DNA of 64,000 nt from Micavibrio sp. (GTDB lineage Bacteria; Pseudomonadota; Alphaproteobacteria; UBA2400). The notes below the pieces were generated by a model that was given only the letters and a program-made list of their open reading frames with translations, did no database searches and was not told the origin of the DNA. A program made the translations under genes and the position numbers. The stretch lies in contig JBEIQE010000001.1 of assembly GCA_040376705.1 (NCBI GenBank), positions 58,193 through 122,192 of the forward strand. The letters are read 5' to 3'. Positions 46,139 to 61,800 of the stretch are shown piece after piece. How positions within the stretch are numbered: position 1 is the first letter of the stretch; each line of letters starts with the position of its first letter.

Positions 46139-46205
46139 AATATAGCAGCCCTAATATTCCTTATAAACGGCTATTTTATGCATGTAAGGCAACCCATAAT
46201 CAGAG

Positions 46206-46236
46206 GGAACGTTTGCTCCACTTGGTGATTGGCCTG
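46206..46236 (+). promoter_or_regulatory. EcfG-type (general stress sigma) promoter-like motif GGAAC-N16-GATT upstream of yciE-like gene
   Basis: GGAACgtttgctccacttggtGATT lies about 45 bp upstream of the ATG at 46281. Confidence 0.3.
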
Positions 46237-46280
46237 TTACCGCGCAGCTGCGTGGCAACCCTCAAGCAAGGATTTCTCAC

Positions 46281-46781
46281 ATGCAGGAAAAAACATTCGA
46301 CACGCTCTTTCACGATCACCTGAAAGACATCTACTACGCCGAGAAGAAAATCTACAAGGTACTGCCGAAAATGGAGAAGGCCGCACAGTCGCCGCAGTTG
46401 AAGGCAGCATTTGCCAAACACCGTGAGGAGACTGAAGGCCAGATCGAGCGCCTCGAGCAGGTATTCGAGATTTTTGGCAAGCGTGCACAGGGCAAAACCT
46501 GTCTCGCGATTGACGGTATTCTTGAAGAGAGCACCGAAGTGATGGAGGAGTACAAAGATTCTCCCGCACTCGATGCTGGCCTTGTGGCTTCAGCACAGGC
46601 CGTAGAGCACTATGAAATCGCGCGCTATACGACGTTGCGCCGTTTGGCCTTGCTGATTGGCCTTAATGATGCAGCCCGTCTGCTTGATGAAACCCTGAAG
46701 CAGGAAACCAAAACCGATATGGATCTCTCGAAGCTTGCCGATATGCAAACAGACGGACCTGCCATACGTAAAGTTGCCTGA
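46281..46781 (+). CDS. YciE/YciF-type ferritin-like (DUF892) stress protein
   Basis: LKDIYYAEKKIYKVLPKM...AVEHYEIARYTTL is the ferritin-like four-helix signature of the YciE family. Confidence 0.7.
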   Translation: MQEKTFDTLFHDHLKDIYYAEKKIYKVLPKMEKAAQSPQLKAAFAKHREETEGQIERLEQVFEIFGKRAQGKTCLAIDGILEESTEVMEEYKDSPALDAGLVASAQAVEHYEIARYTTLRRLALLIGLNDAARLLDETLKQETKTDMDLSKLADMQTDGPAIRKVA

Positions 46782-46962
46782 TCTTGCAATAAAATGAGGG
46801 GGCGTAGAGGCGGTGCGCCCCTTTATTTATGCATTATTGCGATGCAGTGATGCAGATACAAAACTGAAACAAAAGTTTTTCACGCCGCTTACAAACCAGA
46901 CAAAAAAATGTAACGCTGAGCTGTGAACCTGCAGTTGCTTCAACGCAAACAGGAGAAACATC

Positions 46963-47214
46963 ATGAACCTCATTCCCCATGTTATCTCAGGTGTTAACCA
47001 TCCGCTGGTGAGTCAGGTCTATGTTAAGGAGGGCCTGAGGCTACGTAACAAGACCGAGCATGTGCTGGTCATTCGCACCAACATCGAGCGCGATATTGAA
47101 GTGGCTGATGATGATGTGCTGATGTCTTTGTTCGCGGCACTGCCCGCTATCAAGGACAAGGCGCGGAGCCAGACCGGCAATTCAATCGAACGTCTTGAGA
47201 TCCGTTATAACTAA
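46963..47214 (+). CDS. Hypothetical small protein (83 aa)
   Basis: ORF with the upstream RBS aggaga. No motifs. Confidence 0.35.
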   Translation: MNLIPHVISGVNHPLVSQVYVKEGLRLRNKTEHVLVIRTNIERDIEVADDDVLMSLFAALPAIKDKARSQTGNSIERLEIRYN

Positions 47215-47227
47215 TTAATCTCGCGGG

Positions 47228-47983
47228 CTATGCCACTTCCTCTACGGGAGTAAGGCAGCACATATAGCCCACGCCGCGCACGGTTTTGATCATCCGTGGT
47301 GTGCGTGGGCTATCGCCCAGCTTCTTGCGGATACGGCCGATCTGGATATCTATCGCGCGGTCGAAGGATTCGAAATTTCCATCACGGGTGAGGTCGAACA
47401 GATGATCGCGTGTTAAAACGCGGTTGGGCGACAGCACCAGAGCTTCAAGCAGCTTGAACTCACCAGTGGTGAGGTCGAGCGAGGTGCCATGCGCATCGAA
47501 AACCTGATACTGGTTACGGTCGAGGCACATACCCTCAAACATCAGCCGCACCGGGCCACTCTGCGCGTGCTTGTCTTCAATGGCAGCGGCAGCAGGTGTA
47601 GCCGAGGGGGCAGGGGCCGCACGGCGGCGCAGTACGGCTTTAATACGCGCGGCTAGCTCACGCAGCTCATAGGGTTTGGTCAGGTAATCATCCGCGCCCA
47701 TTTCAAGGCCGACGATCTTCTCGGTGGTCTCTGACTTGCCGCTGGCAATGATAACGCCCGCATCACACGCATTCTTGATACGGCCTAATACACTAAAGCC
47801 ATCTGCATCCGGCAGGCCAAGGTCGAGGATCACCACATCCGGCTTCAGGTTCTGTAATGCTGTATCAACCGCAGCACTGCTTTGCGCGGTGTGCACGGTA
47901 TAGCCCTCGTCTTCGAGGTAATGACCGACCACGGTGATAAGTGCCGTATCGTCATCGATATAGAGAACGGAGGCTTTAGTCAT
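47228..47983 (-). CDS. OmpR-family two-component response regulator
   Basis: REC (VLYIDDD...VILDLGLPDADG...KPY) plus a winged-helix C-terminus (LTRDHLF...TVRGVGY). The start is refined to MTKAS, which has a gaggat RBS. Confidence 0.8.
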   Translation of the reverse strand: MTKASVLYIDDDTALITVVGHYLEDEGYTVHTAQSSAAVDTALQNLKPDVVILDLGLPDADGFSVLGRIKNACDAGVIIASGKSETTEKIVGLEMGADDYLTKPYELRELAARIKAVLRRRAAPAPSATPAAAAIEDKHAQSGPVRLMFEGMCLDRNQYQVFDAHGTSLDLTTGEFKLLEALVLSPNRVLTRDHLFDLTRDGNFESFDRAIDIQIGRIRKKLGDSPRTPRMIKTVRGVGYMCCLTPVEEVA

Positions 47984-48133
47984 GAAATCCTCAAAAATGG
48001 TGCGCAAACCTAGCCCAGTTACAAAACTGATACAAACTCTTTCCTGTCAGAAACATTCCGGAAGAATTACAGCAGCATAGCGGGCCTACATTGCGCTCCA
48101 GTAGTTGATGTTAACGATTACCCGGAGGATGTT

Positions 48134-48634
48134 ATGTTTACACACGATCAGCTTATGCCCCAGCTCGAGGGTTTGCGCCGCTTCTCCATGAAGCTGACCA
48201 GCAACCGTCCAGACTCGGACGATCTGCTGCAGTCCACCGTTCTGCGTGCCATCGAGAAGCAGCATTTGTTTGAAGATGGTACCAACCTGTTCCACTGGAC
48301 CAGCCGTATCATGTTCAACATTTTTGTAAGCAACTACAAGCGCCGTACCCAGCGCGAGTGTCAGTTCGACCCCGAGGCGCTCATCGCGTCGCTTTCGGTC
48401 ATGCCTGACCAGGAAAGCCGTATGCACTTCAAGTCGGTATGTGGCGCGATTGAAAAGCTCTCGCCGCAGCACCGCGAGATCATCACCGTTATCTGCTGGG
48501 ATGGACTCTCATATGAAGAGGCCGCACAGAAGCTCGGCATCGCTATTGGCACCGTGCGTTCGCGCCTTGCCCGTGCCCGTGAAAAGCTGATGGAGCGTCT
48601 GGGTGATGTGCCTGAAGGTACCACCATTCAGTAA
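48134..48634 (+). CDS. ECF-family RNA polymerase sigma factor
   Basis: Sigma-2 (LLQSTVLRAIEK...FHWTSRIMFN) and sigma-4 (LSPQHREIITVICWDGLSYEEAAQKLGIAIGTVRSRL) regions are present. It is divergent from the OmpR-type regulator. Confidence 0.8.
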   Translation: MFTHDQLMPQLEGLRRFSMKLTSNRPDSDDLLQSTVLRAIEKQHLFEDGTNLFHWTSRIMFNIFVSNYKRRTQRECQFDPEALIASLSVMPDQESRMHFKSVCGAIEKLSPQHREIITVICWDGLSYEEAAQKLGIAIGTVRSRLARAREKLMERLGDVPEGTTIQ

Positions 48635-48715
48635 ACACTGCCCGGAGCGGGGAACTATTCCTTCCGCTCCGGGTTCTTTGCATGTTGATTTACCGTCTTG
48701 AAGGAGACAGATAAA

Positions 48716-49540
48716 ATGAAGACCCAGCTTTTAGCCACCACGGCAATTGCCATTCTTATGGCACTGCCCGTTGCGGCCAACGCCGAAACCACCACGACCA
48801 CCACCAAGGTCGAGCATTCAGCAACAGTTCCGGCTGCATCCCCCACAGTCGGTCAGCGCCTTGATAGCGGTATCGAAAGTACCCGCGAAGGTATCGCTGC
48901 TGCAGCCGAAAGTGTGCGTGATTTCATGACTCCGTCAGATGCAGCTGGTGGCCTTGCCACTGTCAGCATCAACAAGCGTAATACCGTAGCCGGTATCATC
49001 GGCGAGAAGGTATACAACGTGCGTAATGAGCAGGTTGCGACTATCGACGACGTACTGTTCAACGCCGACGGCACCGCTTCCAAGATCATTCTCGCCAACG
49101 GTGGCATCATGGGTATGGGCGCCAAGCATGTAGCGGTAGATTTTGGTCTGCTCTACACCCGCGCTAATAACGATGACGTGATCGTACCGATTACCGAAGA
49201 AACCATCAAGCGTATGGCCCCTTTCTCGTATGAAGCGGCAGATGCCAAAGATGGCGCACAGACAATGGCCGCAGGCCAGGTCAGTGCCAAGGCGATGCTG
49301 GACGGCGAACTGCTCAATGCCCGTGGCACTGAAGTTGGTTCGATCGACAACATCACCATCAGCGAAGGCCATGCCAGCCAAGTGATTGTAGCTTACAACA
49401 CCACACTGGGCATGGGCGGCGAGAAGATGGCGATTGCCTACGACCAGCTGCAGAAGAGCGGCGACAATACCGAGGTAGACTTCAAGCTGCCGGGCACGTT
49501 GTCTTCGCGCTTTGAGACCTACGTCAAGGCTGCCAACTAA
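48716..49540 (+). CDS. Exported PRC-barrel domain protein (two PRC-barrel repeats)
   Basis: Signal peptide MKTQLLATTAIAILMALPVAANA. There are two copies of G-x-x-V-Y-N-x-x-x-E-x-V-x-x-I-D-D-V-L-x-x-x-D-G. The start is refined to 48716, with an aaggag RBS. Confidence 0.7.
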   Translation: MKTQLLATTAIAILMALPVAANAETTTTTTKVEHSATVPAASPTVGQRLDSGIESTREGIAAAAESVRDFMTPSDAAGGLATVSINKRNTVAGIIGEKVYNVRNEQVATIDDVLFNADGTASKIILANGGIMGMGAKHVAVDFGLLYTRANNDDVIVPITEETIKRMAPFSYEAADAKDGAQTMAAGQVSAKAMLDGELLNARGTEVGSIDNITISEGHASQVIVAYNTTLGMGGEKMAIAYDQLQKSGDNTEVDFKLPGTLSSRFETYVKAAN

Positions 49541-49567
49541 TTTAACCCACCAACCAAGGAGAAGATC

Positions 49568-49783
49568 ATGAATAGCGATATCATTCAGGGTAAATGGGAA
49601 CAGGTTAAGGGTGAAGTCATCAAGCAGTGGGGCAAGCTCACAGATGACACCATGACCGAGATTAACGGTAACCGCACCAAGCTTCTGGGCAAGATCCAGG
49701 AGACCTACGGTGTGGCTCAGGATGAAGCCGAACGTCAGGTTTCTGAATGGGAAAAGGCACGTGACAAGAGCAAAGCTGCCTAA
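49568..49783 (+). CDS. CsbD-family general stress protein
   Basis: KWEQVKGEVIKQWGKLTDDTMTEINGNRTKLLGKIQETYGVAQDEAERQVSEW is canonical CsbD. Confidence 0.8.
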   Translation: MNSDIIQGKWEQVKGEVIKQWGKLTDDTMTEINGNRTKLLGKIQETYGVAQDEAERQVSEWEKARDKSKAA

Positions 49784-49805
49784 AAACAGCCTGCTTATGT
49801 GAGGA

Positions 49806-49838: not shown

Positions 49839-49858
49839 TTTATCCGTGTTTTATTTTA

Positions 49859-49887
49859 TGGAACGTTTATACGCGCCGGTTGTTCTT
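49859..49887 (+). promoter_or_regulatory. EcfG-type promoter-like motif GGAAC-N16-TGTT upstream of ompA-like gene
   Basis: GGAACgtttatacgcgccggtTGTT lies about 50 bp upstream of the ATG at 49935. Confidence 0.3.
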
Positions 49888-49934: not shown

Positions 49935-50552
49935 ATGCACAAGTTTACTGCTACTGCCTTTGTCATGCTGACCGCGCTGACATTTGCCCATCCTGTTCAT
50001 GCCGATACGGCACTGAGCAACAATGCAATTGTTACCGACTCATCGGGTAAGCCGGTTCATGGTCTGGCCAGTGGTACGTGCGTACGCACTAGCTGGGAAA
50101 AGGGCGAGAACGTCTGTGCACCTGCACAGCAGACCCGCACAGTAACCCAGACCGTACTGACCGATGACGAGCGCGTTGTTTACTTCGCGTTCAACAGTGC
50201 CGAGCTGACGCCAGCTGCGCAGAACAACCTGAACGCAGTGGCCCAGCGCCTTGCCAAGGCTGACGACGTCGCCAGTGCCGAAATCGTTGGCTTTGCCGAC
50301 CGTATTGGCAGCAACGACTATAACGACAAGCTTTCGGCCCGTCGTGCGGCAGCTGTAAAGGACTATCTGGTCCGTAACGGCTACCTTAATGTTAACGTAA
50401 CGCAGGTACGTGCCATGGGCGAAAACCGCCCCACCACCAGCTGCCCGACAGATGCTGCGCGTAACAGCCAGATCGCCTGTCTCAGCCCTGACCGTCGCGT
50501 TGAAATTGAGCTGACCTATGTTGACCGTATGCGTCTGACCTCAACCCGCTAA
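49935..50552 (+). CDS. OmpA-family (OmpA C-terminal-like domain) exported protein
   Basis: Signal peptide MHKFTATAFVMLTALTFAHPVHA. The C-terminal OmpA-like domain reads VYFAFNSAELTPAAQNNL...GFADRIGSNDYNDKLSARRAAAV. Confidence 0.8.
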   Translation: MHKFTATAFVMLTALTFAHPVHADTALSNNAIVTDSSGKPVHGLASGTCVRTSWEKGENVCAPAQQTRTVTQTVLTDDERVVYFAFNSAELTPAAQNNLNAVAQRLAKADDVASAEIVGFADRIGSNDYNDKLSARRAAAVKDYLVRNGYLNVNVTQVRAMGENRPTTSCPTDAARNSQIACLSPDRRVEIELTYVDRMRLTSTR

Positions 50553-50631: not shown

Positions 50632-50656
50632 GGAACACTGGCCAACAGCAGGTGTT
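50632..50656 (+). promoter_or_regulatory. EcfG-type promoter-like motif GGAAC-N16-TGTT
   Basis: GGAACactggccaacagcaggTGTT lies about 45 bp upstream of the small ORF at 50701. Confidence 0.35.
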
Positions 50657-50700: not shown

Positions 50701-50907
50701 ATGACGATCATGACCAAGTTCAATCAGCCTCAGGCTTTGCAGGATATCAATTCGCCCGACCGTGTTGCCCGGAATCCGGACAACAAGAAGAAGGGTGAAG
50801 CGATGATTGATGTCGAAGAGCAGGGCGCCCGCAGTCCACAGGCCAAGGATAAGGCACCTTTGCATGATTTTCAGCAGGAGCCACGCAAGGTTTCCGGTGA
50901 CCGTTAA
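50701..50907 (+). CDS. Small hydrophilic disordered stress-type protein (KFNQP family), copy 1
   Basis: 68 aa, Lys/Asp/Gln-rich. The N-terminus M(TIM)TKFNQP is shared with the ORF at 51099. It is followed by a GC hairpin. Confidence 0.4.
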   Translation: MTIMTKFNQPQALQDINSPDRVARNPDNKKKGEAMIDVEEQGARSPQAKDKAPLHDFQQEPRKVSGDR

Positions 50908-51019: not shown

Positions 51020-51044
51020 GGAACATGTACCAGCCCCTCGTATT
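51020..51044 (+). promoter_or_regulatory. EcfG-type promoter-like motif GGAAC-N16-TATT
   Basis: GGAACatgtaccagcccctcgTATT lies about 55 bp upstream of the ATG at 51099. Confidence 0.3.
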
Positions 51045-51098: not shown

Positions 51099-51266
51099 AT
51101 GAACAAGTTCAATCAGCCTGACAACAAGAATAAGCCTGCCACCACTGGCAAGCCTGAGTCAGCCAACCCGCAGCAGGGTAATAACAAGCCCAAGGGCGAA
51201 GGTAAGGTTGAAGTCGGCGATCCTGATGCACAGGATGAGCAGACCAAGGCACAGGGCAGCCGTAAA
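51099..51266 (+). CDS. Small hydrophilic disordered protein (KFNQP family), copy 2 (55 aa, below ORF-track cutoff)
   Basis: Manual translation: MNKFNQPDNKNKPATTGKPESANPQQGNNKPKGEGKVEVGDPDAQDEQPDQGTGQP. RBS gagagg. Followed by hairpin copy 2. Confidence 0.35.
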
Positions 51267-51298
51267 GCCTCATAAGCTTTACTCACGCTAATGAATAG

Positions 51299-51330: not shown

Positions 51331-53580
51331 TTATGAAGCAAGGTTACTGTGCCTGAGGTTCATATGGCGGGCCAGCATATCGCGCAGATCATCGCCAAAA
51401 ATGGGTTTGGTCAGGTAGTCATCCATGCCGCTGGCAATTACGCGGTCTTTATCGTGCATCATGGCATGTGCTGTCATACAGATTATAGGCGTGCGGGGCA
51501 GGCCGCGGGCCTCCTCGATCTCGCGAATAGCTTTGGTTGCGGTAAAGCCATCCATAACCGGCATCTGCACGTCCATAAGAATGGCATCGTAATGGCCGGC
51601 CTCAAACTTATCGACTGCTTCCTTGCCATTTATGGCTACATCATAGGCCAGGCCCATCTCTTCAAAGATGAACGAGATAACCGCGATATTGCCATTATAG
51701 TCTTCGGCCAGCAGCACCTTCTTCTCATGCAGGGCCACAATGCGCGGGCGGGCTTGCGGCTCGGCGGTATCGGCCTCTTCAAGCGTGGCAGTTATCCCGC
51801 GGTGCGGCACCAGCAGGGTAAAGATGGAGCCACGGCCCAATACGCTATCAACATGAATATGCCCGCCCATAAGCGTGGCGAGGTTTTGCGAAATGGTGAG
51901 GCCAAGGCCAGTACCGCCAAACTTTTTGGTGATAAAGGCATCGCCCTGTTTGAATTGCTCGAAGATCTTTTCTTTCACACCATCGGCAATACCAATACCT
52001 GTATCAGTCACTGTAACGGAGAGGAATGGCGCGCCATCAAGGTCGATCAGCTTGGGCGTAACCGTAACCGAGCCTATTTCAGTAAACTTGATGGCATTAC
52101 CTACCAGATTGAGTAGCACTTGGCGCAGGCGCGGGCCGTCATAATACCCCACCACGCGGCTGAATGAGCGGTAATCAAGGTTATAGGTAATACCCTTCTC
52201 CTTGGCGGTGAGGGTGGTAATTTCATAAACCTCGCGCAGGATATGGCCGAGGTTGACCTCGCGCAGGTCAAGCTCCACCTGGCCGCTTTCAATACGCGAG
52301 AAATCGAGAATATCGGTTACCAGTTCGCGCAGTGTGATTGAGCTGGTATGCAACACATGCACCAGCTGCTTTTGCTTGTCGCTCAGGTTACCGGTGTTCT
52401 TCTGTAAAATTTCTGCCACGCCGTTAATGGCCGTAAGTGGCGTACGGATTTCGTGGCTCATATGCGCCAGAAACGCGCTCTTCGCAGCGCTGGCGCGCTC
52501 GGCTTCTTCCTTTTCAGCTGCCACCTTCTCCTGATAGAGGCGCAGGTAAGTAACATCCGCCGTGGCGCCTACCAGCCGCTCGACTTTGCCATTGGCGTCA
52601 ACAATGCAGCGGCCACGCGAGTTCACCCAGATCCAGCGTCCATCGCTATGGCTCAGGCGATACATATCGGTATACTCAGGTGTTTCATTGCGGCAGCCAG
52701 CCTCGATGTTCTTGAGCACATGCTCTTTATCATCCGGGTGCACCAGCTGCATAAACTCTTCTAGCGGAATGCCGGTTGTAATAGGGGCGCGGCCTAAAAG
52801 ATCAAAGAGCTGGCGCGAGTAGAACAGCTGGTTCTTCTCGATATCCATATCAAAGATACTGTCGTTACTGCCGCGCATGGCCATCTGGAAGCGCTGGCGC
52901 GCATCTTCAAGCCGCTTCTCGGCCTGTTGGCGCTTGCCCTGCACATAAAACAGGAAAGTGTTGAACACCAGCAGCAGGAGAATAGCTGCCGTACCGCCAA
53001 AAATAAGTGAAGTGAAATACTGCTGGCGCTTGTCGCTGGTCTCCTGCGTGCGCCGGATCATGATGTTCTGCTCATGGCTGATAAAGTCGCGAATAGCGGC
53101 AGTCAGGTCAGTGCGGGTTTTCTCTAGTGCGTCGTAGCCTTCCATAAAGCGGGGCAGACTAAAGCTTCGGCCCTGCAGGTCGGCAAGGCGTGTGTCGAGC
53201 TGGTCGATATAGGTTACGAAAAGGGCGCGAATGGCGGCCAGCTGTGCACTCTGGTCGGCATTATCAACAGTGCTTTTTTCGATATTCTCGATCTGCAGCA
53301 GGGCTTCTTCGCGTGCGGCTTTATAGGCATTCAGAAAACTTTCATCGCCGGTGAGCAGGTAGCTGCGTTCCTCCAGCAGCATGCGATTAGGCAGGGAGCT
53401 GAGCTTTTGCGTAGCGATAATTACATTATAGCTATGCATAACCCATGAGTTGCTCTCGGCGACATTGCTGCGGCCGCTGACAAAGATCTGCACAAAAACA
53501 CCTGCAGAAATGAGCAGGATGAATGAGAATAAAAGGAGGTCGCGCAGATTTCTATGGTTCATCACTTGCCCTTGTCGCAA
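51331..53580 (-). CDS. Hybrid sensor histidine kinase/response regulator with CHASE3-like periplasmic sensor, PAS, HisKA, HATPase and REC
   Basis: A TM is followed by NSWVMHSYNVIIATQKL...ERSYLLTGDESFL (CHASE3-like), a second TM, PAS, an H-box HMSHEIRTPL, a G-box GGTGLGL, and a C-terminal REC (ILMDVQMPVMDG). Confidence 0.85.
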   Translation of the reverse strand: MRQGQVMNHRNLRDLLLFSFILLISAGVFVQIFVSGRSNVAESNSWVMHSYNVIIATQKLSSLPNRMLLEERSYLLTGDESFLNAYKAAREEALLQIENIEKSTVDNADQSAQLAAIRALFVTYIDQLDTRLADLQGRSFSLPRFMEGYDALEKTRTDLTAAIRDFISHEQNIMIRRTQETSDKRQQYFTSLIFGGTAAILLLLVFNTFLFYVQGKRQQAEKRLEDARQRFQMAMRGSNDSIFDMDIEKNQLFYSRQLFDLLGRAPITTGIPLEEFMQLVHPDDKEHVLKNIEAGCRNETPEYTDMYRLSHSDGRWIWVNSRGRCIVDANGKVERLVGATADVTYLRLYQEKVAAEKEEAERASAAKSAFLAHMSHEIRTPLTAINGVAEILQKNTGNLSDKQKQLVHVLHTSSITLRELVTDILDFSRIESGQVELDLREVNLGHILREVYEITTLTAKEKGITYNLDYRSFSRVVGYYDGPRLRQVLLNLVGNAIKFTEIGSVTVTPKLIDLDGAPFLSVTVTDTGIGIADGVKEKIFEQFKQGDAFITKKFGGTGLGLTISQNLATLMGGHIHVDSVLGRGSIFTLLVPHRGITATLEEADTAEPQARPRIVALHEKKVLLAEDYNGNIAVISFIFEEMGLAYDVAINGKEAVDKFEAGHYDAILMDVQMPVMDGFTATKAIREIEEARGLPRTPIICMTAHAMMHDKDRVIASGMDDYLTKPIFGDDLRDMLARHMNLRHSNLAS

Positions 53581-55401: not shown

Positions 55402-55662
55402 ATGCCCACACCACGTCCGGCTGCCGATCCCAAGCTTTCTTCAACTGGCGAAGATAAGGCCCGTAAGGCAACGCTTGACCCTGCTAAAGGTCATATCACG
55501 CAATCAGGTCATAGCCGCGATATGTATCAGCGTGATAGCGATGGCGAGTTCATGGGTAATACCGACCGTGGTTACGGTGGCGGCTCAAGAGTTGATAATG
55601 GCGAGGCCCAGGGCGGCATAGCCGACCCTGCGCCTAAACAGGTCAAGCTGTTCAGGCGCTAG
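55402..55662 (+). CDS. Hypothetical small Gly/Asp-rich protein
   Basis: Refined start MPTPRPAAD with an aggagg RBS. Low complexity. Confidence 0.4.
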   Translation: MPTPRPAADPKLSSTGEDKARKATLDPAKGHITQSGHSRDMYQRDSDGEFMGNTDRGYGGGSRVDNGEAQGGIADPAPKQVKLFRR

Positions 55663-55877
55663 TGCCGAATGATATATGCATGGCCGCATCTTCACCCCGT
55701 AAGCGCAATCGCCACAATAACGAGCTGATAGTTGCTCTGGCGGGTGTCATGCTGCCCACACTGTTTATCATCATTATTGGTTTGGGGTATGGCATGGTTT
55801 ATAAATCAGCCCCCAGTTTTGAGGTGCAAAAGGTTTATATTGCCAAGGATTGCGATACGCGCGTCATGCGCCCATAG
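55662..55877 (+). CDS. Hypothetical small membrane protein
   Basis: Single TM IVALAGVMLPTLFIIIIGLGYGMV. 71 aa. Confidence 0.35.
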   Translation: MPNDICMAASSPRKRNRHNNELIVALAGVMLPTLFIIIIGLGYGMVYKSAPSFEVQKVYIAKDCDTRVMRP

Positions 55878-55995
55878 GCGGAACTCTTTTTCTGCCTATG
55901 TGTTGATAACGCAGGACAGCCAAGAACGTATAGCTTTCCGGGATCCGTCAGGTAGATGATCTGGACTTGTTCAGAATGTCTGCTTGTCCCGGAAC

Positions 55996-56025
55996 GAGGC
56001 CACTTTTCGCAAGAGAAGTGGCCTC
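55996..56025. repeat. Conserved hairpin element copy 3 (GAGGCCACTT-TTCGCAAGAG-AAGTGGCCTC)
   Basis: A 10-bp stem with the same TTCGCAAGA loop core as copies 1 and 2. Confidence 0.6.
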
Positions 56026-56047
56026 ACTTCTTAGATGTCTGATATGG

Positions 56048-56072
56048 GGAACTCTCAGCGCCAAGCGGGGTT
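56048..56072 (+). promoter_or_regulatory. EcfG-type promoter-like motif GGAAC-N16-GGTT upstream of DUF883 gene
   Basis: GGAACtctcagcgccaagcggGGTT lies about 35 bp upstream of the ATG at 56108. Confidence 0.3.
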
Positions 56073-56107
56073 TAACCTCTGCACTTACCTTTACCAAGGA
56101 GATGATT

Positions 56108-56437
56108 ATGGATTCCAATACAAAGATTCAGGACTACGCCGCTGCCGCCAAGAAGGTGGGCTATCCTGAGGTTGAGAGCATTCGCGGTGATCTGCGTGCG
56201 CTCAAGACTGATACAGTTGACCTCGGTCGCCATGTTGTGGCCGATGGCCGCGAGAAGCTGACCGAGCTGGCTGCCAACGCCAAGGATATGGCCAAGGACG
56301 AGTATGCAGAGCTGAGCAATCTCACCAAGGAAAAGAGCCGTGTGCTTGCCTCCTTCATTAAAGACAAGCCGTTCCAGGGTGCAGCTGCTGCATTTCTTAC
56401 CGGTTTTGTTATCAGCATGATGATGCGGAAGCGCTAA
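56108..56437 (+). CDS. DUF883 (ElaB/YqjD/YgaM) family stress-induced membrane-anchored protein
   Basis: A helical N-terminus plus a C-terminal TM (AAAAFLTGFVISMMMRKR). Start chosen for aaggag spacing. Confidence 0.7.
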   Translation: MDSNTKIQDYAAAAKKVGYPEVESIRGDLRALKTDTVDLGRHVVADGREKLTELAANAKDMAKDEYAELSNLTKEKSRVLASFIKDKPFQGAAAAFLTGFVISMMMRKR

Positions 56438-56440: not shown

Positions 56441-56869
56441 ATGCCCGGATTAGCAGAGTACGCCGCCCTCGTGCAACTTCTTAGCCCGGCTTTGCCGCAG
56501 CAGGGAAGGCGCATCATTGCCCTTAACGAGCTTTGGCTGGTGGCAACTTTGCTGTCCGTGGTTGGTTTTATCGCCATACTGGTGGGGCTGTTTCTTTGGT
56601 TGGATAATCATTATCCCCGCGAAATAGCCCTGCTGGTGATTGGCGGTATTATGGTGGCGGTGAGCCTTATGCTGGTTGGCATATCGCTGTTCATAACCCG
56701 CCGGGTGGAACGCCCGGTGCGTGATATGGCCGATAATCTGGCCCATAACAGCACCGATTTCATCAAGTCGCTGATCGATGAGCTTGATGATCCCATCCGG
56801 GAGAACCCGGCCATGGCCATGGGCGTGGCGGCACTCTCCGGTTTCATCGCTGCCGAAAAGATGATGTAG
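56441..56869 (+). CDS. YqjE-like (DUF1469) inner membrane protein
   Basis: Two TM helices. It is tightly coupled (4 bp) after the DUF883 gene, which mirrors the E. coli yqjD-yqjE arrangement. Confidence 0.55.
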   Translation: MPGLAEYAALVQLLSPALPQQGRRIIALNELWLVATLLSVVGFIAILVGLFLWLDNHYPREIALLVIGGIMVAVSLMLVGISLFITRRVERPVRDMADNLAHNSTDFIKSLIDELDDPIRENPAMAMGVAALSGFIAAEKMM

Positions 56870-56923
56870 CCCACAGGCGGCATCATTCGTTTGTCAGCTT
56901 TACCCCTTACAAGGAGCATAACC

Positions 56924-57232
56924 ATGACCGAAGTTAAACCCTTGCAGCCTGTAGCCGCTAACATGAGCCCAATTGCCAATCCATCCGGCGAAAAGACATT
57001 ACCTCTAGATGCCGAGCTGTATGCCGGCAACCACCAGGCCGAGCATCTGGTTGGCAAAATTAAGGCCAAATGGAACGAGCTGTCGGATGAGGATGTTACT
57101 GCCTATCACAGCCAGCCTGAGCACTTCTATACCCGCCTTAATGAGAAGTACGGAATTACCCGTGAGCAGGCCGAGCTGGATGTTGCAGCCATGATCCCGC
57201 CACCAGTGGTGCCGGTTGAAGAAGAGGTATAG
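56924..57232 (+). CDS. CsbD-like diverged paralog 1
   Basis: KAKWNELSDEDVTAYHSQPEHFYTRLNEKYGITREQAE parallels the CsbD W-G-K-L-T-D-D...G-K-I-Q-E-x-Y-G pattern. Start refined to MTEVKP with an aaggag RBS. Confidence 0.5.
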   Translation: MTEVKPLQPVAANMSPIANPSGEKTLPLDAELYAGNHQAEHLVGKIKAKWNELSDEDVTAYHSQPEHFYTRLNEKYGITREQAELDVAAMIPPPVVPVEEEV

Positions 57233-57298: not shown

Positions 57299-57784
57299 TT
57301 ATGAAGCCTTTTTGATACCAGCCTCAGCATCCAGGGCAGGCTGCACAATCTGCTCAAGGTTAGGCAAGACTTCATCAATCTTGCGGGAGGCGCGCAACAA
57401 TTGCTCACTCAAGGCCGCTTGGTCCTTGGTCAGTGGCGTGCCGCCTTCATCTGCCTGACGGCCCATCTCATCGGCAGCCATTTTCAGGCGGCCGCGCAGG
57501 TCGGTCAACCAGGCAGGGCCCAGTTCCGAAATTTTGCCCGCTGCCTTAATGCCGCGACGGTAAGATTCGGCCCAGCGCTCAAGTGTTTCCACCTGTTCGC
57601 GAATGCCTTCGGCTTCCAGTGTGGCCTCACAGTTTACCAGCAGGCGTTTTAGCTCGTTGGTCAGCTCCTCTACCTGTGCCAGCTGGCTGCCAAAGGCGGC
57701 CTGCTTGTCACCGGTATCCGGCACTGCAGTGGTTTCGGCCTCTGGTGCTGCGCCAGCGGGTGGCTGAGAGTAGGTGCTATGCAT
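57299..57784 (-). CDS. Hypothetical helical protein (161 aa)
   Basis: An ORF with an acidic N-terminus, followed by a T-rich region. Confidence 0.45.
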   Translation of the reverse strand: MHSTYSQPPAGAAPEAETTAVPDTGDKQAAFGSQLAQVEELTNELKRLLVNCEATLEAEGIREQVETLERWAESYRRGIKAAGKISELGPAWLTDLRGRLKMAADEMGRQADEGGTPLTKDQAALSEQLLRASRKIDEVLPNLEQIVQPALDAEAGIKKAS

Positions 57785-57811
57785 GCGTATCTCCTTGTAA
57801 CAGTTTAAGTT

Positions 57812-58039
57812 TTAAGGCGTACCGTCGGTCGCATCCTTAACGGTATCGGTTACACGCTCGGCCGGTGTACGGTCCTCAAGTTCGCGCGCAGCATTATCGA
57901 TACCATTCGGCAGCTCGGAAATGGCATCGCCAAGACGTTCGGCGCCATTACGGTTGTCCCTCATGTTAAAGAAGGCATAGCCGCCAACGGCTACAAGCGC
58001 GATCACGAGAACCGTGATGATGGTGTTGGTATTCTGGGT
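57812..58039 (-). CDS. Small single-TM protein (start MATQNTNTI)
   Basis: TM ITVLVIALVAVGGYAFF. ORF track runs to 58189. Start approximate. Confidence 0.4.
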   Translation of the reverse strand, partial: TQNTNTIITVLVIALVAVGGYAFFNMRDNRNGAERLGDAISELPNGIDNAARELEDRTPAERVTDTVKDATDGTP

Positions 58040-58227
58040 TGCCATGTAGATATCCTTGAATTGTGGGTGAATATGAAACTTAACAGCCGGTGGCGTGTTC
58101 AGTTCCCTGAGTAGCGCTGTTTTTGACAAAATCTCATAAAAACCGGAACTAAAACGGTAAGTTTCCCGTTCATGTATCAGCGGGCACACAGGTGCCGGTA
58201 GCCAGATACATTTACATGAGGGACCTC

Positions 58228-58926
58228 ATGAACCAGCTTAGAAATACCGTTCTCGTGATTGAGGACGACCAGTCGATCCGCAAGCTTTATGGCCTTACAC
58301 TGGATTCCGATGAGTTCAGGGTAATTGACTGTGAGAATGGCCGCTCGGGCATCCGCAGCGTCGCTTCGGTCAAGCCCGACCTGGTGCTGCTCGACCTCGG
58401 CCTGCCGGATATGAATGGCAAGGATGTGTTGCGGGCGATCCGTGAGTGGTCGCAGGTGCCCATCATCGTCTGCTCGGCGCGGGATGAAGATAGTGAAATT
58501 CTCGAGGCGTTTGAGAGCGGGGCCGATGATTATGTGATCAAGCCCTTCAGCCCCGATATACTGGTGGCGCGCATCATGGCCAATTTGCGCAAGTCAGTTA
58601 CGGTTGAGGCCGGCGAGCCTGAATTGGTGAATGGTGCCCTGCGGATTGACCTTGTACGGCATGAGGTGTTTTTGGGCGATGACAAGATATCGCTCACGCC
58701 CAAGGAGTTTGCGCTACTGCGCTATCTGCTCATCAACCGCGGCAAGATGCTGACGCATCAGCAGATTCTGTCCGAAATCTGGGGGCCAGCCCATATCAAT
58801 AATAATCAGTACCTGCGTGTTTATGTCGGCCATCTGCGTGATAAGCTTTCGAGCGATATACCCGGCGCACCGCACATCATGACCGAAGTGGGTATCGGCT
58901 ACCGTATGGAAGTAGCAGCTGCTTAA
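58228..58926 (+). CDS. OmpR/KdpE-like two-component response regulator
   Basis: VLVIEDDQSIRK...LVLLDLGLPDMNG...VIKPF plus a winged-helix C-terminus. Start refined to MNQLRN with a gaggga RBS. Confidence 0.8.
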   Translation: MNQLRNTVLVIEDDQSIRKLYGLTLDSDEFRVIDCENGRSGIRSVASVKPDLVLLDLGLPDMNGKDVLRAIREWSQVPIIVCSARDEDSEILEAFESGADDYVIKPFSPDILVARIMANLRKSVTVEAGEPELVNGALRIDLVRHEVFLGDDKISLTPKEFALLRYLLINRGKMLTHQQILSEIWGPAHINNNQYLRVYVGHLRDKLSSDIPGAPHIMTEVGIGYRMEVAAA

Positions 58927-60134
58927 ACCGTCTCGCTACCTTGCCCCAGTTCGGTGGTCGGGAAGGTGAGGCGCCATGTAGTACCGTTATCGGATGTCAT
59001 CTCGGCAGTGCCTTTGGCCTGTTCCATCAGCCGTTTGATGAGGCCAATACCGTGCCGTTTGCTACCTTCTTTTAACACAAATCCTACACCATCATCTGTA
59101 ATGGTCAGGACATTCAGGCCAGCCTCCTGTACAAGTGAGATCTTGATTGTACCGGCCTTGCTTTTAAATGCATGCAGATAGGCATTTGAGGTAACCTCGG
59201 TTACCACAATCCCCAGTGCAGTTACCAAATCGAGCCCTAGAGCGATGGGGGTGGCCTCGCAAGTGAGAATAACAGGGAACTCGCCTTTTTCCTGGAAATT
59301 AGCCAGATTGGTGCAAAGCGACTGTAAATACGCCGCAAAGTCGATGGTGGGGGCAAGGCCGTGGCCGAGTAAATGGTCGTAGATAAGCGAGAGGCTCACC
59401 ACACGGCGTGCTATAGCGCGGATGCCTTCCTTGCCGCTATCATCCGCCAGTTCGATCTGCCGTAGCAGCATACCGTGCACCAGCTGCAGGTTGTTGCGCA
59501 CACGATGCTGCAGCTCTGCTGCCAGTATGTTCTTCTCTTCCAATAATGTAGCGCGCTCGGCTGCCAGTGCTTCCATTTGTGCCAGCATGGCCTGCAGCAT
59601 GGCGGTGCGCTCGGCAGTGCCAATTGCCTGAGCGACTACATTGGCAAAACCGGTAAGGAAGTCGATATCATGTGTATCGAACTTGTGCTGTACCGAGCAG
59701 TCGGCTTCAAGTACCCCCCATGAACCGCCGTCTCCTTTAATCAGTACATCAACTGTTGAGACAATACCGTGCTGAGCATAAAAATCCGGTAGGTCATAGC
59801 TATTGCTTTTTGTGATGTCCTCAAGAATAACCGGCTCGCCAGTTACAAAGGCACGGCCCTGGGTTGAACTTTGGTCGGCTTGCGAAATAACATGGCCAAC
59901 CACGCCAGCTTCCCAGCCATAACCGGCCACGACCAGCAGGTCGTGCTCATCAGCACGGTAGCGGCAGATTTTTGAAAAAGGTACGCCCAGACTTTCGGCA
60001 CAGATGCGTGCTGCTTCAGACAGGATTTTTTCAAGACTGTTCTCGCTAAACGCAAAGCTGCCAAAATTGGCAAGTGCAGCCTGTTGCCGTAACAGGCGTT
60101 CTACCGTATGCGGAAAAACTTCTGGCTCTGTCAT
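58923..60134 (-). CDS. GAF-domain sensor histidine kinase of the HWE/HisKA_2 type
   Basis: N-terminal GAF-like region. The H-box HRVRNNLQLV is a HisKA_2/HWE signature. The C-terminal ATPase has GIGL. No TM. Confidence 0.8.
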   Translation of the reverse strand: MTEPEVFPHTVERLLRQQAALANFGSFAFSENSLEKILSEAARICAESLGVPFSKICRYRADEHDLLVVAGYGWEAGVVGHVISQADQSSTQGRAFVTGEPVILEDITKSNSYDLPDFYAQHGIVSTVDVLIKGDGGSWGVLEADCSVQHKFDTHDIDFLTGFANVVAQAIGTAERTAMLQAMLAQMEALAAERATLLEEKNILAAELQHRVRNNLQLVHGMLLRQIELADDSGKEGIRAIARRVVSLSLIYDHLLGHGLAPTIDFAAYLQSLCTNLANFQEKGEFPVILTCEATPIALGLDLVTALGIVVTEVTSNAYLHAFKSKAGTIKISLVQEAGLNVLTITDDGVGFVLKEGSKRHGIGLIKRLMEQAKGTAEMTSDNGTTWRLTFPTTELGQGSETV

Positions 60135-60574
60135 ATCATCGGGCTCCTGTACTCGTTCACTACATTCTTGAGCAGATGGAAGTTATGCGGAAACAGCTCT
60201 GGCGCAGATGCATGATTGGTTTTAATTTCGCTGACTATACGCAGGGCTTTGAGCAGGTCGGCCATCATGTAAGGCTTCTGGATATAGCCCTCACCATCAG
60301 CTTGTATCAGGTCGTGGTTGAGGCTGTCGCCACTGGCATAAAGAATAGCCATGGTGCGTTTGTGGGCCAGAAGCGGGCTTATCTGTGAGCCAAATCCACC
60401 ATCGGCGAGGCGATAATCAATAATCGCTATATCAGGTTGATGCAGGTCAGCGAGTGTGACGGCTTCATCTACCGTGCGCGCGATACCACATACACTATGG
60501 CCGCCTATCACGACAAATTCCTCAAGGATATCGGCGATCATTACATTGTCTTCGGCGATAAGGACATTTGACAT
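60131..60574 (-). CDS. Single-domain response regulator (REC only)
   Basis: MSNVLIAEDNVMIADIL...DIAIIDYRLADGG...IQKPY. Its 4-bp overlap with the upstream HWE kinase suggests a cognate pair. Start approximate (ORF track 60646). Confidence 0.7.
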   Translation of the reverse strand: MSNVLIAEDNVMIADILEEFVVIGGHSVCGIARTVDEAVTLADLHQPDIAIIDYRLADGGFGSQISPLLAHKRTMAILYASGDSLNHDLIQADGEGYIQKPYMMADLLKALRIVSEIKTNHASAPELFPHNFHLLKNVVNEYRSPMI

Positions 60575-60827
60575 GATGGTCTCCGTGTAGTGCGAATTGA
60601 TCTGTTTAATTACGCAGGAGCACAATGCTGCCGGAGACATGGGCAATTGAGTTTTGCTGTGGGCTGACCTTAGTCGATTGCTGGCTTCATGTATTCAACT
60701 ATATAGAGAAATATTCGGTTTATGGCTTCTTTACGGTATGACGGGTCTAAGGCATCGCATCCTTATGCCTCAAGCCCCATATACACAGTGTGCCGCTTGA
60801 AGCGGCGAAAGTTCAAAGGAGAACATC

Positions 60828-61103
60828 ATGACTACTGAAAACAACAATCCGACTGCCAAGCCAGTTACCCCTATCGTGGCCGCACCTGTGCAGCCCAAAG
60901 ATGACAAGTCGGCTGCAGTAAGTGCCGAAATGCAGAAGAGCTGGGACAAGCTGTCGCCTGAAGATATGAAGCTGTATGAGACAAGCCCTGACAAGTTCTT
61001 CGGCGTACTGAAAGACAAGCAGGGTGTGACCCGCGAGAATGCTGAAAAGCGCCTCACCGAGATCAAGAACAGCTGCGGTTGTAGTACAGAAAAAGCTGCT
61101 TAA
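60828..61103 (+). CDS. CsbD-like diverged paralog 2 (C-terminal CGC motif)
   Basis: KSWDKLSPEDMKLYETSPDKFFGVLKDKQGVTRENAEKRLTEIKNSCGCS. Confidence 0.5.
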   Translation: MTTENNNPTAKPVTPIVAAPVQPKDDKSAAVSAEMQKSWDKLSPEDMKLYETSPDKFFGVLKDKQGVTRENAEKRLTEIKNSCGCSTEKAA

Positions 61104-61172
61104 TCAGCAGTCAGTTATTGAAGGGGCCGGGTTCGCCCGGCCTCTTTCTTGTTTTACGGAAAATGCACAGAC

Positions 61173-61352
61173 ATGTTGTTGAAATTTGCTCTTCTATTCT
61201 TTGTGGTGGCGAGTGTGGCGGCCATTCTTGCGCTTGGCGATGCTGCCGCAGCCTATGCGCCGCTGGCCAGAAAAATATTCATGATCTCAATGGGTTTGTT
61301 TATTGTTTCAACAATTGCACATGCTTTTCGCAAGCGTACGCCCAAGCTCTAA
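61173..61352 (+). CDS. DUF1328-like small membrane protein, second copy
   Basis: MLLKFALLFFVVASVAAILALGDAAAAYAPLARKIFMISMGLFIV parallels the 53641-53823 protein. ORF track start 61149. Confidence 0.45.
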   Translation: MLLKFALLFFVVASVAAILALGDAAAAYAPLARKIFMISMGLFIVSTIAHAFRKRTPKL

Positions 61353-61500
61353 TCCAATCTGTGATTGTATATAATACATATGTCGGCAATTTTATGGCGT
61401 TTTTGCAGTGGGGCATCTCTCCCGTCTGGAAAAGTGATGCGCATGCGCGCAAGATGATCATATCACTTGTTTGCACAGCAGCAGTTCTGAGGAGGGTGCT

Positions 61501-61749
61501 ATGGCAGCAGGAAATAATACTCTGGTCGCAAAAGCCACGAGCTGGCCCGACCGCTACGCCGACATATGCATAGAAATGAAAGAGCTGTGGGACAAACTCA
61601 GCAATGAGGATGTGCGCCTTTATCACATCGAGCCTGAGCAGTTTTTCATCCGCCTTAAAGAGAAGCAGGGTGTGAGCCGCGAAGTTGCCGAGCGCTGTAT
61701 GGCGCAGATCAAGGCCGAGTGTGGCTGCGATAATGGCCGGTTTGCCTGA
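61501..61749 (+). CDS. CsbD-like diverged paralog 3 (C-terminal CGC motif)
   Basis: KELWDKLSNEDVRLYHIEPEQFFIRLKEKQGVSREVAERCMAQIKAECGCD. Start refined to MAAGNN with a gaggagg RBS. Confidence 0.5.
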   Translation: MAAGNNTLVAKATSWPDRYADICIEMKELWDKLSNEDVRLYHIEPEQFFIRLKEKQGVSREVAERCMAQIKAECGCDNGRFA

Positions 61750-61761
61750 AGAGCGTGCTTA

Positions 61762-61800
61762 AGCAAAAAGCCTGCCCGCAGGAGCGGACAGGCTTTTTTG
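61762..61800. terminator. Bidirectional terminator between CsbD-like gene and AlaRS-like gene
   Basis: aaaaagcctgcccgcaggagcggacaggcttttttg. Confidence 0.65.

Follow-up and report, generated by a model that had tools for sequence, protein, structure and literature searches.

A 64,000-nucleotide stretch of a Micavibrio sp. genome (assembly GCA_040376705.1, contig JBEIQE010000001.1), referred to here as the window, contains a gene for an extracytoplasmic function (ECF) sigma factor within a cluster of stress-related genes. The part of the window between 46.2 and 58.9 kb probably comprises an EcfG-related sigma factor, its regulon served by eleven promoters, two-component control over transcription of the sigma gene, and a positive feedback loop. 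The eleven promoters are present at the positions listed in Table 1, are placed in front of transcription units and are conserved in related loci. A first-pass annotation had described 46.2–61.8 kb as a dense island of genes of the EcfG/PhyR general stress regulon of Alphaproteobacteria; there, the CHASE3 hybrid histidine kinase and the response regulator of the OmpR type with which the sigma gene forms a conserved module had not been recognised as its likely regulators.

Promoter motif and its placement

The motif was searched for with two patterns. The first, that of the first-pass annotation (GGAAC, 18 nt, TT), gave 12 matches in the whole window against 5.2 expected, nine of them within 46.2–59.3 kb. 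The tighter pattern, GGAAC-N16/17-N[GA]TT, gave 12 matches in 46.15–61.8 kb, for which 300 Markov-1 simulations averaged 1.28 matches and never exceeded 5; the other 48 kb of the window held four, about the chance rate. Nine of the 12 island matches were intergenic, faced a gene and lay 47–79 nt 5' of its start codon. With correct placement defined as intergenic, gene-facing and 40–130 nt before a start, these nine placed sites compared with an average of 0.088, and never more than 2, over 500 runs in which the intergenic DNA was randomised. This was the comparison that the first-pass annotation had proposed for its motif, and the motif stood up to it. All of the GGAAC sites that it had listed were present (46206, 48651, 49860, 50632, 51020, 55880, 56048 and 58106 on the reverse strand), and three were added to them: 53873 (reverse strand, N17, TATT), 58145 (N17, CGTT) and the variant TGAAC-N16-CGTT at 53938.

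Several of the promoters lie directly 3' of the terminator hairpin of the preceding gene, as expected for separate transcription units. The genes without a site of their own are mostly second genes of tight operons (CsbD, YqjE-like, the first CsbD-like gene and orf161); LpxR, also without its own site, sits behind entericidin, an order kept in the related loci L008 and L011. The CsbD-like genes at 60828 and 61471, the second DUF1328 gene, the HisKA_2 kinase and the single-domain receiver had neither the motif nor counterparts in the related loci, so the regulon membership that had been suggested for these genes was not upheld. Sigma-70-type promoter-like sites were not enriched (9 against 13.7 expected), a count that is uninformative for the motif-free genes.

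Matches outside the island at 1128 (−), 36528 (−), 37994 (+) and 62053 (−), and those inside genes at 57072 and 59276, were treated as chance occurrences. The site at 36528 (GGAAC-N17-TGTT) scored 16.3 with the position weight matrix (PWM) described below, the third best score in the window; it runs antisense to a nitroreductase gene (35725–36495), at the 3' end of that gene, and has no obvious gene behind it. A hairpin with a 10-bp stem at 48641–48673 (CCCGGAGCGG...CCGCTCCGGG, then TTCTTT) follows the sigma stop codon directly, and its loop holds the GGAAC −35 element of the PRC promoter at 48651. This hairpin may serve as terminator and promoter at once.

Conservation of the motif in related loci

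Related loci were fetched that encode sigma factors 69–76% (L008, L009/L010, L011) or 50–54% (L012–L016) identical to that of the window. A metagenome scan with an alignment of the clade added 80 more loci, and the set searched with tblastn consisted of the window and 97 loci. In all of the fetched loci L008–L016 the motif was found 43–84 nt 5' of the orthologues of PRC, OmpA, DUF1328, ElaB-like/YqjE-like, orf77/orf161, CsbD and a small hydrophilic peptide. Among loci with sigma factors 45–76% identical, the 16–17 nt spacers were unrelated from locus to locus while the motif was retained. Sites before PRC also occurred in L008, L009, L012, L014, L015 and L016, and those before the OmpA-like gene in L008, L009, L011 and L015. 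Counterparts of the KFNQP proteins with the motif upstream were present in L008, L009 and L011, and the TGAAC variant before entericidin recurred in L008 and L011. Orthologues of the ElaB-like/YqjE-like genes carried the motif in L013, L014 and L016, and those of orf77/orf161 in L008 (position 1099) and L009 (position 8041). For DUF1328 the motif lay at most 130 nt upstream in 9 of 13 related loci; GGAAC-N16-CGTA occupied this place in the low-GC loci L018 and L024, and the site in L009 was 167 nt upstream.

A PWM built from 45 sites of other loci only had the consensus GGAACtTtt...cGTTnG, and its top hits in the window were the island promoters. Strict GGAAC-N16/17-nGTT sites numbered 67 over 239 kb in the loci of the sigma clade, where 14 were expected, and 60 over 581 kb in those of more distant ECF sigma factors, where 28 were expected. 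Taken with their placement, this conservation indicates that the motif sites are functional, conserved promoters.

The −10 box varied with lineage. CGTT was commonest in L012–L016, and TGTT, GGTT, TATT and GATT predominated in the window, L008, L009 and L011, which suggests that sigma factor and promoter are co-evolving. The local sigma factor is the likely reader of these promoters, on account of its family and its constant co-localisation with them: the regulon genes travel with the sigma gene across lineages, down to 45% identity, and the −10 box shifts from one lineage to another.

The motif agrees with published EcfG promoters, as the first-pass annotation had noted of the consensus. The sequence GGAAC-N16-CGTT is the EcfG motif in R. 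etli and S. granuli (PMC3892343, PMC7083833); in S. melonis it is GGAAC-N17-20-GTT, and genes shown experimentally to depend on EcfG there, a PRC-barrel gene included, have GGTT, GATT or CATT as −10 variants (PMC6599016), a published range that covers the −10 variants of the island. In S. granuli csbD, ecnAB, osmC and yiaD are direct general-stress targets (PMC7083833). The earlier description of the cluster as an EcfG-type regulon is therefore borne out by the enrichment of the motif and its conservation before orthologues; the PhyR and NepR that would complete such a system were not found at the locus, as described below.

Identity of the sigma factor

The ECF sigma gene reported within the island at 48134 was confirmed by Pfam as 48134–48634. 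The best match among solved structures was 5uxx_A (90 bits, E 1.3e-24), followed by Mycobacterium tuberculosis SigH/SigE at 64 bits. The 5uxx protein shares 92–93% identity with sigma factors of Bartonella and 80% with R. phaseoli EcfG1 (P0191), whose locus has the canonical order of HWE kinase, PhyR, NepR and EcfG; on the strength of these homologues and their locus it was taken to be Bartonella EcfG. The five top NCBIfam models were the same for the window sigma factor and for two canonical EcfG1 proteins. The window protein fell below the curated cut-off of all five, scoring 122 bits against 270 for PRK12546, 114 against 219 for PRK12547, 108 against 185 for PRK12511, 105 against 307 for PRK12540 and 100 against 321 for PRK12516, while the canonical EcfG1 proteins passed the cut-offs at 395 and 337 bits. 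Pfam PhyR_sigma2 was matched at 28.3 bits against a cut-off of 27, and the best non-EcfG NCBIfam models reached only 72–74 bits. Membership of ECF39, the group of Streptomyces SigE, was not indicated: SigE-fam_strep, with its cut-off at 141.6 bits, scored 72 and was outranked by the EcfG-type models.

By these comparisons the window sigma factor is EcfG-related but a clear outlier. Its proposed place in the EcfG/ECF15 group stands in so far as its nearest relatives are bona fide EcfG proteins, and does not in so far as its identity to R. phaseoli EcfG1 is only 36% and every cut-off is missed; the PDB, NCBIfam and Pfam comparisons neither assign it to a different ECF group nor cleanly exclude one.

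The sigma clade takes in the organism of the window, several metagenome-assembled genomes (MAGs) that bear the label Rhodospirillales or Alphaproteobacteria, and ocean contigs from TARA. Named sigma homologues come mostly from Alphaproteobacteria, Rhodospirillales and Micavibrio MAGs, with two labelled Kapabacteria and Pseudobdellovibrionaceae. The nearest named relatives of the Lon protein are Azospirillaceae and Rhodospirillales at 77–79%, which points to an alphaproteobacterial host, and the sigma clade has so far been seen only in uncultured Alphaproteobacteria.

Conserved neighbours of the sigma gene

The gene divergent from the sigma gene (47228–47983) encodes a response regulator with matches to PF00072 (82.7 bits) and PF00486 (83 bits), and the DD...D...T...K residues of a receiver are present in its translation. 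The best family match was OmpR, at 190 bits against an equivalog cut-off of 331. An orthologue of this regulator, 47–71% identical, was found in 19 of the 20 loci whose sigma factor is at least 45% identical to that of the window. It is divergent from the sigma gene in 17 of the 20, across a gap of 118–186 bp. In 11 loci the sigma gene is followed immediately, in convergent orientation, by an orthologue of the CHASE3 hybrid kinase; in the window, L008 and L009 the kinase gene lies within 5 kb. In both receiver domains and in the kinase the catalytic residues are intact in the translations. Two transmembrane (TM) segments flank the CHASE3 domain, so that the kinase would sense a signal outside the cytoplasm.

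Loci with sigma factors of at most 40% identity had no close orthologue of the regulator, and most gave no hit; in L062 and L065 an OmpR-family gene was present that is only 39–42% identical to it. The sole exception within the clade is L001 (Micavibrio sp. UBA6212, sigma factor 53% identical), with neither regulator nor kinase nearby. This locus has DUF1328, YqjE-like, entericidin and CsbD genes 8 kb from the sigma gene; a YflT-like stress gene lies next to the sigma gene, with GGAAC-N16-CGTT on its strand. Judged by gene order, the sigma clade has a CHASE3 hybrid kinase and a regulator of the OmpR type as its conserved partners, and not NepR and PhyR. No paper linking EcfG, or an ECF sigma factor, with CHASE3 was found in the literature searched.

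A conserved 83-aa open reading frame (ORF; 46963–47214) lies beside the regulator gene in the window, L008 and L009 and beside PRC in L014 and L016. Its translation carries the motif HPL(V/I)S..Y(V/L)K...VLVI(R/E)TN, and gave no match in Pfam (E<=0.01) or NCBIfam (E<=1e-4).

Promoter of the sigma gene

The GGAAC motif was absent upstream of the sigma gene in all 18 aligned 135-nt regions (the window and the 17 divergent loci), and a GGAAC-type autoregulatory promoter was rejected on this ground. The 18 regions share instead the consensus GtTACAaAA..GA.ACAAA.cttTTTCa....tga.ACA. It begins with GTTACA, followed 11 bp later by GA(A/T)ACAAAcTTTTTC and about two helical turns further on by a third element, G(A/T)(A/T)ACA; GACAAA and GTTACA come next, then after 8–9 nt an invariant TAnnnT, with the ribosome-binding site and ATG some 35 nt beyond it. 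The sigma gene of L015 still has the core of the boxes upstream, although its regulator gene now lies 1.6 kb off; in L001, where the regulator is not nearby, the boxes are absent.

Tandem repeats that adjoin the −35 element or stand in its place are the typical binding sites of PhoB/OmpR-type activators. Published OmpR boxes of 20 bp, for example GTTACAACTTGTTACATAAG, are tandem hexamers one helical turn apart (PMC9861516). We propose that the boxes at 48018–48072 are binding sites of the regulator. The conserved boxes, the TAnnnT −10 and the lack of GGAAC suggest that the sigma gene has a promoter of the sigma-70 type, which the regulator would activate once phosphorylated. Additional TTACA-N5/6-GAAACA pairs occur in L012 at 3448 (−), L014 at 1615 (−) and L027 at 11711 (+), near EF-hand or DUF1328 genes with GGAAC promoters, and from these the regulator may have further targets.

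Search for PhyR, NepR and anti-sigma factors

When the sigma and receiver domains were compared with all ORFs of the 64-kb window using phmmer, no second sigma-like ORF was found, and none of the receiver-domain ORFs had a sigma-like domain. Searches of the window and 97 loci by tblastn with PhyR, the PhyR N-terminal domain and NepR of R. phaseoli returned none of them, PhyR giving generic receiver similarity only; apparent hits of the PhyR N-terminal domain in distant loci were the ECF genes themselves. Neither phyR nor nepR was present in the 20 loci with sigma factors at least 45% identical. The 2.5 kb past the right end of the window contained no phyR, only tRNA synthetase genes and Rce1. 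There is no nepR immediately upstream of the sigma gene, where the 150 nt are intergenic and shared with the divergent regulator gene, and PF18557 (NepR) was not detected among the called genes of L006–L016. Anti-sigma Pfam families were likewise missing from the scanned window proteins and from the called genes of L006–L016. The PRC-barrel protein was considered as an anti-sigma factor and rejected, having its own promoter and a signal peptide and being encoded elsewhere in most related loci.

The HisKA_2 kinase at 58923–60134 had PhyK as its best NCBIfam match (82 bits), and the neighbouring receiver (60131–60646) a generic receiver family, with the PhyR receiver second (59 bits); both the PhyK and the PhyR-receiver scores are far below cut-off. 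HisKA_2 kinases and single-domain receivers of these types usually feed PhyR. Neither gene carries the motif or recurs in related loci, so that the pair tells little of the module around the sigma gene.

Candidate small RNA

The promoter at 55880 has no conserved ORF behind it. The sequence that follows, 55912–56034, was predicted to fold with a minimum free energy of −55.2 kcal/mol (z = −5.75). The terminator hairpin (55996–56025) has a short U-rich tail, and the next GGAAC promoter (56048) comes right after it. A counterpart at 2372–2541 (−) of L008 is flanked by two GGAAC sites and has a similar fold (z = −7.48); the 256-nt stretch 55870–56125, which contains the RNA, is 74% identical between the two. 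In L008 the protein genes downstream of the counterpart are degraded, with the arrangement and the fold kept. An Rfam scan of 46–62 kb at E<=1 gave no hit. The element is a possible sigma-dependent small RNA, represented by two sequences, which are too few for covariation.

Gene content of the region

The features of the cluster are listed in Table 1. PRC-barrel and CsbD, separated by 28 nt, are a probable operon (48716–49783, +), as are orf77 and orf161 (57299–58045, −), and the KdpE-like regulator is a probable regulon member. Between entericidin and lpxR lies a 23-codon ORF, MRSVILFLIGVPIPVIIIYNLFF, which is very hydrophobic and probably shares their transcript.

Table 1. Genes, promoters and other elements of the 46.2–61.8 kb region, in window coordinates.
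Feature	Position	Strand	Remarks
Promoter GGAAC-N16-GATT	46206–46230	+	75 nt before DUF892 start; PWM 15.9
DUF892 (YciE-like, ferritin-like)	46281–46781	+	Pfam PF05974, 190 bits
83-aa ORF, conserved	46963–47214	+	No family match; no motif
OmpR/PhoB-family response regulator, REC and winged helix	47228–47983	−	Pfam, NCBIfam
Tandem boxes GTTACA-N5-GATACA ... GAAACA ... ATTACA	48018–48072		Regulator-sigma intergenic region
TAnnnT (TACATT), likely sigma-70-type −10 of sigma gene	48087–48092	+	Conserved in 18 loci
ECF sigma factor, EcfG-related, divergent clade	48134–48634	+	Pfam, NCBIfam, PDB match
Promoter GGAAC-N16-GGTT	48651–48675	+	For PRC-CsbD
PRC-barrel protein with signal peptide	48716–49540	+	Pfam
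CsbD	49568–49783	+	Pfam
Promoter GGAAC-N16-TGTT	49860–49884	+	For OmpA-like gene
OmpA-family protein	49935–50552	+	Pfam PF00691
Promoter GGAAC-N16-TGTT	50632–50656	+	For 50701–50907; top PWM score in window, 18.1
Small hydrophilic KFNQP proteins, two	50701–50907, 51099–51275	+	KFNQP in common
Promoter GGAAC-N16-TATT	51020–51044	+	For second KFNQP protein, 51099–51275
Hybrid histidine kinase TM-CHASE3-TM-PAS-HisKA-HATPase-REC	51331–53580	−	Pfam
DUF1328 membrane peptide	53641–53823	−	Pfam
Promoter GGAAC-N17-TATT	53848–53873	−	For DUF1328, probably kinase too
Promoter TGAAC-N16-CGTT	53938–53962	+	For entericidin, 23-aa peptide, LpxR
Entericidin lipoprotein	53999–54154	+	Pfam
Hydrophobic ORF, 23 aa	54169–54240	+	ORF reading
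LpxR lipid A deacylase (outer membrane)	54298–55296	+	Pfam
Unconserved ORFs, two	55366–55877	+	ORF listing
Promoter GGAAC-N16-TGTT	55880–55904	+	Orphan, no ORF behind
Candidate sigma-dependent structured small RNA	55912–56034	+	Long hairpin and terminator hairpin 55996–56025
Promoter GGAAC-N16-GGTT	56048–56072	+	For ElaB/YqjD-like, YqjE-like, CsbD-like operon
ElaB/YqjD-like membrane-anchored protein	56108–56437	+	Architecture
YqjE-like membrane protein	56441–56869	+	PF07332, 23.6 bits against cut-off 28.4
CsbD-like	56891–57232	+	NF007748, weak
orf161	57299–57784	−	Conserved in related loci
orf77, small membrane protein	57812–58045	−	Conserved in related loci
Promoter GGAAC-N16-TGTT	58082–58106	−	For orf77, orf161
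Promoter GGAAC-N17-CGTT	58145–58170	+	For second response regulator; back to back with orf77 promoter
KdpE-like OmpR-family response regulator (second)	58192–58926	+	Family match
GAF-HisKA_2 kinase	58923–60134	−	Pfam HisKA_2
Single-domain receiver	60131–60574/60646	−	PRK13435 / PhyR-receiver type
Small genes CsbD-like, DUF1328-like, CsbD-like (starts include 60828, 61471)	60828–61749	+	Sub-threshold matches

Most of the family names given in the first-pass annotation held by Pfam. Those of the three CsbD-like ORFs (E 3e-7 to 6e-3 with NF007748), the second DUF1328-like copy (18.6 bits, cut-off 27), the YqjE-like protein and DUF883 are weak, the last resting for 56108–56437 on a coiled coil and a C-terminal anchor only. 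The kinase at 58923–60134 had been called an HWE kinase; it matched PF07568 at 56.9 bits, and HWE_HK at 18.8 bits is below cut-off. It is a HisKA_2-type kinase and not strictly HWE.

The GC content of 46.2–61.8 kb is slightly lower (0.50–0.55) than elsewhere in the window (about 0.55–0.59). Horizontal acquisition as a foreign island was considered and rejected, the drop being slight and the same gene set occurring, rearranged, in related lineages; the cluster is a regulon neighbourhood and not a demonstrable foreign island.

Housekeeping genes follow 3' of the cluster, an AlaRS-like gene and then a GluRS-type gene beyond the window end. The AlaRS-like gene (61819–63699, −) encodes only 626 aa (652 aa from a TTG start), with the catalytic and second additional domains and without the usual C-terminal part, and adjoins the GluRS/GlnRS-type gene just past the window end. 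Elsewhere in the window, a GAF-PAS-PAS-HisKA ORF (41797–43275, −) stops after HisKA with no HATPase domain detected and may be a truncated or split sensor kinase. A flagellar cluster (FlgB/C, FliR and FlhB-like ORFs, 1–22000) and a pair of TerD-domain genes (37021–38895) have no motif in promoter position.

Discussion

The circuit proposed for the cluster would run as follows. The membrane-bound CHASE3-PAS hybrid kinase would sense an extracytoplasmic signal and phosphorylate the regulator, directly or through an Hpt protein, whereupon the regulator would bind the boxes and switch on transcription of the sigma gene. The eleven promoters would then direct the sigma factor and RNA polymerase to the units of the cluster: DUF892; PRC-CsbD; the OmpA-like gene; the two hydrophilic peptides; DUF1328-kinase; entericidin-LpxR; the structured RNA of about 120 nt; the ElaB-like/YqjE-like/CsbD-like operon; orf77-orf161; and the second OmpR-type regulator. 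As the motif-driven DUF1328-kinase operon is among these, the sigma factor would raise the level of the kinase and the loop would be positive. The kinase is probably co-transcribed with DUF1328 from the sigma-dependent promoter, because the order of DUF1328 followed by the kinase is conserved (the window and 10 related loci), the motif lies upstream, and no convincing terminator hairpin was seen on reading the 60-nt gap between the two genes in the window. PRC, OmpA-like, entericidin, LpxR, DUF1328, ElaB/YqjD-like, YqjE-like and orf77 are envelope products and make up most of the regulon, so the response would be centred on the envelope.

Several points weigh against this circuit. An Hpt protein, which a hybrid kinase would ordinarily require, was not seen. 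In the window's own subgroup the boxes closest to the −10 depart more from the canonical form, and a weak ECF-type match, GGAAT-N16-AGTT at 48059 (−), overlaps the boxes, at the third of them, in the window, L011 and L012, so part of the box conservation may reflect a promoter of the regulator gene. The 83-aa ORF may be an unrecognised anti-sigma factor. Finally, a canonical PhyR-NepR-EcfG system may be present elsewhere in the genome and read the same promoters, a thought prompted by the HisKA_2 kinase and the PhyR-receiver-type receiver in the island.

The last of these points leads to the alternative that fares best, an ordinary PhyR-NepR-EcfG response in which a phyR-nepR-ecfG1 locus elsewhere is the master, the local sigma factor is an accessory of the EcfG2/SigU type, and the two-component system only modulates it. 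We regard this as possible but on the whole doubtful. PhyR has been reported as nearly universal in free-living Alphaproteobacteria, and the HisKA_2 kinase and the receiver have the resemblance to PhyK and PhyR described above. About half of alphaproteobacterial genomes have an extra EcfG lacking an adjacent anti-sigma or regulator gene (PMC3892343), and ecfG2 of S. granuli is also without an EcfG-type promoter (PMC7083833). Against an accessory role, neither phyR nor nepR was found in the 64 kb, the 2.5 kb past its right edge or the 20 related loci; the regulon genes travel with the local sigma gene; and the −10 drift with lineage is what would be expected if the co-localised sigma factor were the reader. 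The lack of a motif before the sigma gene also argues that it is not downstream of an EcfG1 in a cascade.

It is improbable that the regulator and kinase are mere neighbours or targets, with a constitutive sigma factor held by an unrecognised anti-sigma factor (the 83-aa ORF or a membrane protein). Anti-sigma factors are used by 114 of 157 ECF groups (PMC7826278), the kinase stands behind a sigma-dependent promoter and is thus at least a target, and the family-less 83-aa ORF is found near the module in five loci. This ORF is nevertheless absent from most loci of the clade and matches nothing in Pfam or NCBIfam. The regulator gene, moreover, has no conserved sigma motif and yet keeps its divergent adjacency to the sigma gene in 17 of 20 loci, and tandem repeats resembling OmpR boxes stand just upstream of the sigma −10. 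Chance matches in AT-richer intergenic DNA can be dismissed as the source of the GGAAC-N16-xxTT sites, for although the motif is short and degenerate and the four matches elsewhere together with 57072 and 59276 occur at about the chance rate, the number of placed sites is far above expectation, the motif is conserved before orthologues in more than 10 independent loci with diverged spacers, and the PWM trained on other loci recovers the sites.

Known systems resemble the proposed circuit in part. The PhyR-NepR-EcfG (ECF15) response shares with it the nearest relatives of the sigma factor, the promoter GGAAC-N16/17-(C)GTT, the alphaproteobacterial host and a regulon with CsbD, entericidin, PRC-barrel, OmpA/YiaD-like and many small proteins (PMC7083833, PMC6599016). 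It differs in that the window locus has no co-transcribed nepR, no phyR nearby and no GGAAC promoter before the sigma gene, has an OmpR-type regulator and a CHASE3 hybrid kinase as neighbours instead, and uses, in its own lineage, mostly TGTT, GGTT and TATT rather than CGTT as −10. EcfG2 of R. etli, SigU of C. crescentus and EcfG2 of S. granuli are likewise EcfG-like and without a cognate anti-sigma gene upstream; they differ from the window gene in that ecfG2 of R. etli has neither a regulator nor an anti-sigma gene close by (PMC3892343), that of S. granuli lies inside the phyR-nepR locus, and none of these non-canonical paralogues was reported with a conserved OmpR-type regulator and CHASE3 module in the literature searched.

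In control logic the locus comes nearer to ECF factors transcribed under two-component systems, such as Streptomyces sigE-cseBC, than to the PhyR-NepR switch, since no anti-sigma factor is visible at the locus. In ECF39 (sigE-cseBC) a regulator has been described to switch on transcription of the sigma gene, and in ECF234 this has been proposed (PMC7826278). As in ECF39 sigE-cseABC, ECF32 and ECF234, a response regulator and a kinase are conserved by an ECF gene with no recognisable anti-sigma factor (PMC7826278). The window sigma factor is of an unrelated lineage, so that the likeness is one of control logic only, and it is set apart by the CHASE3 hybrid kinase, by divergent and convergent genes in place of an operon, by the DUF1328-kinase feedback arm and by its phylum. 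The regulator resembles that of EnvZ-OmpR in its best family match and in the sequence GTTACA-N5-GA(A/T)ACA, which is similar to OmpR boxes (PMC9861516); the half-sites are 11 and not 10 bp apart, the OmpR score is 190 against 331, and the kinase is a CHASE3 hybrid and not EnvZ. The candidate RNA is comparable to GsrN of Caulobacter (PMC5869019) in being short and structured, right behind a GGAAC-type promoter and with a terminator of its own, and differs from it in having no Rfam match and in being known from two sequences, at the sequence level alone.

In the usual account, Alphaproteobacteria share one conserved mechanism of general stress response, in which phosphorylation of PhyR leads to capture of NepR and release of EcfG. 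The clade described here, which occurs on 20 or more independent contigs of metagenomes from soil, fresh water and ocean, has an EcfG-like sigma factor with the regulon and promoter code kept and different neighbours. We suggest, tentatively, that this mostly uncultured alphaproteobacterial clade runs its general or envelope stress response without PhyR-NepR, anti-sigma control having been lost and the sigma factor being governed through the CHASE3 kinase and the regulator, with feedback and a small RNA among the outputs. Should a canonical PhyR be encoded elsewhere in these genomes, the finding would become that of a well-documented secondary EcfG circuit, useful but ordinary. If the proposed wiring is true, an ECF system can exchange post-translational for transcriptional control while its regulon is kept, in a module compact enough to be described by its boxes, −10 element, eleven promoters and feedback arm. 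It would also tie DUF1328, ElaB/YqjD-like, YqjE-like, PRC and CsbD proteins, small hydrophilic peptides and lipid A remodelling by LpxR to one envelope-signal pathway.

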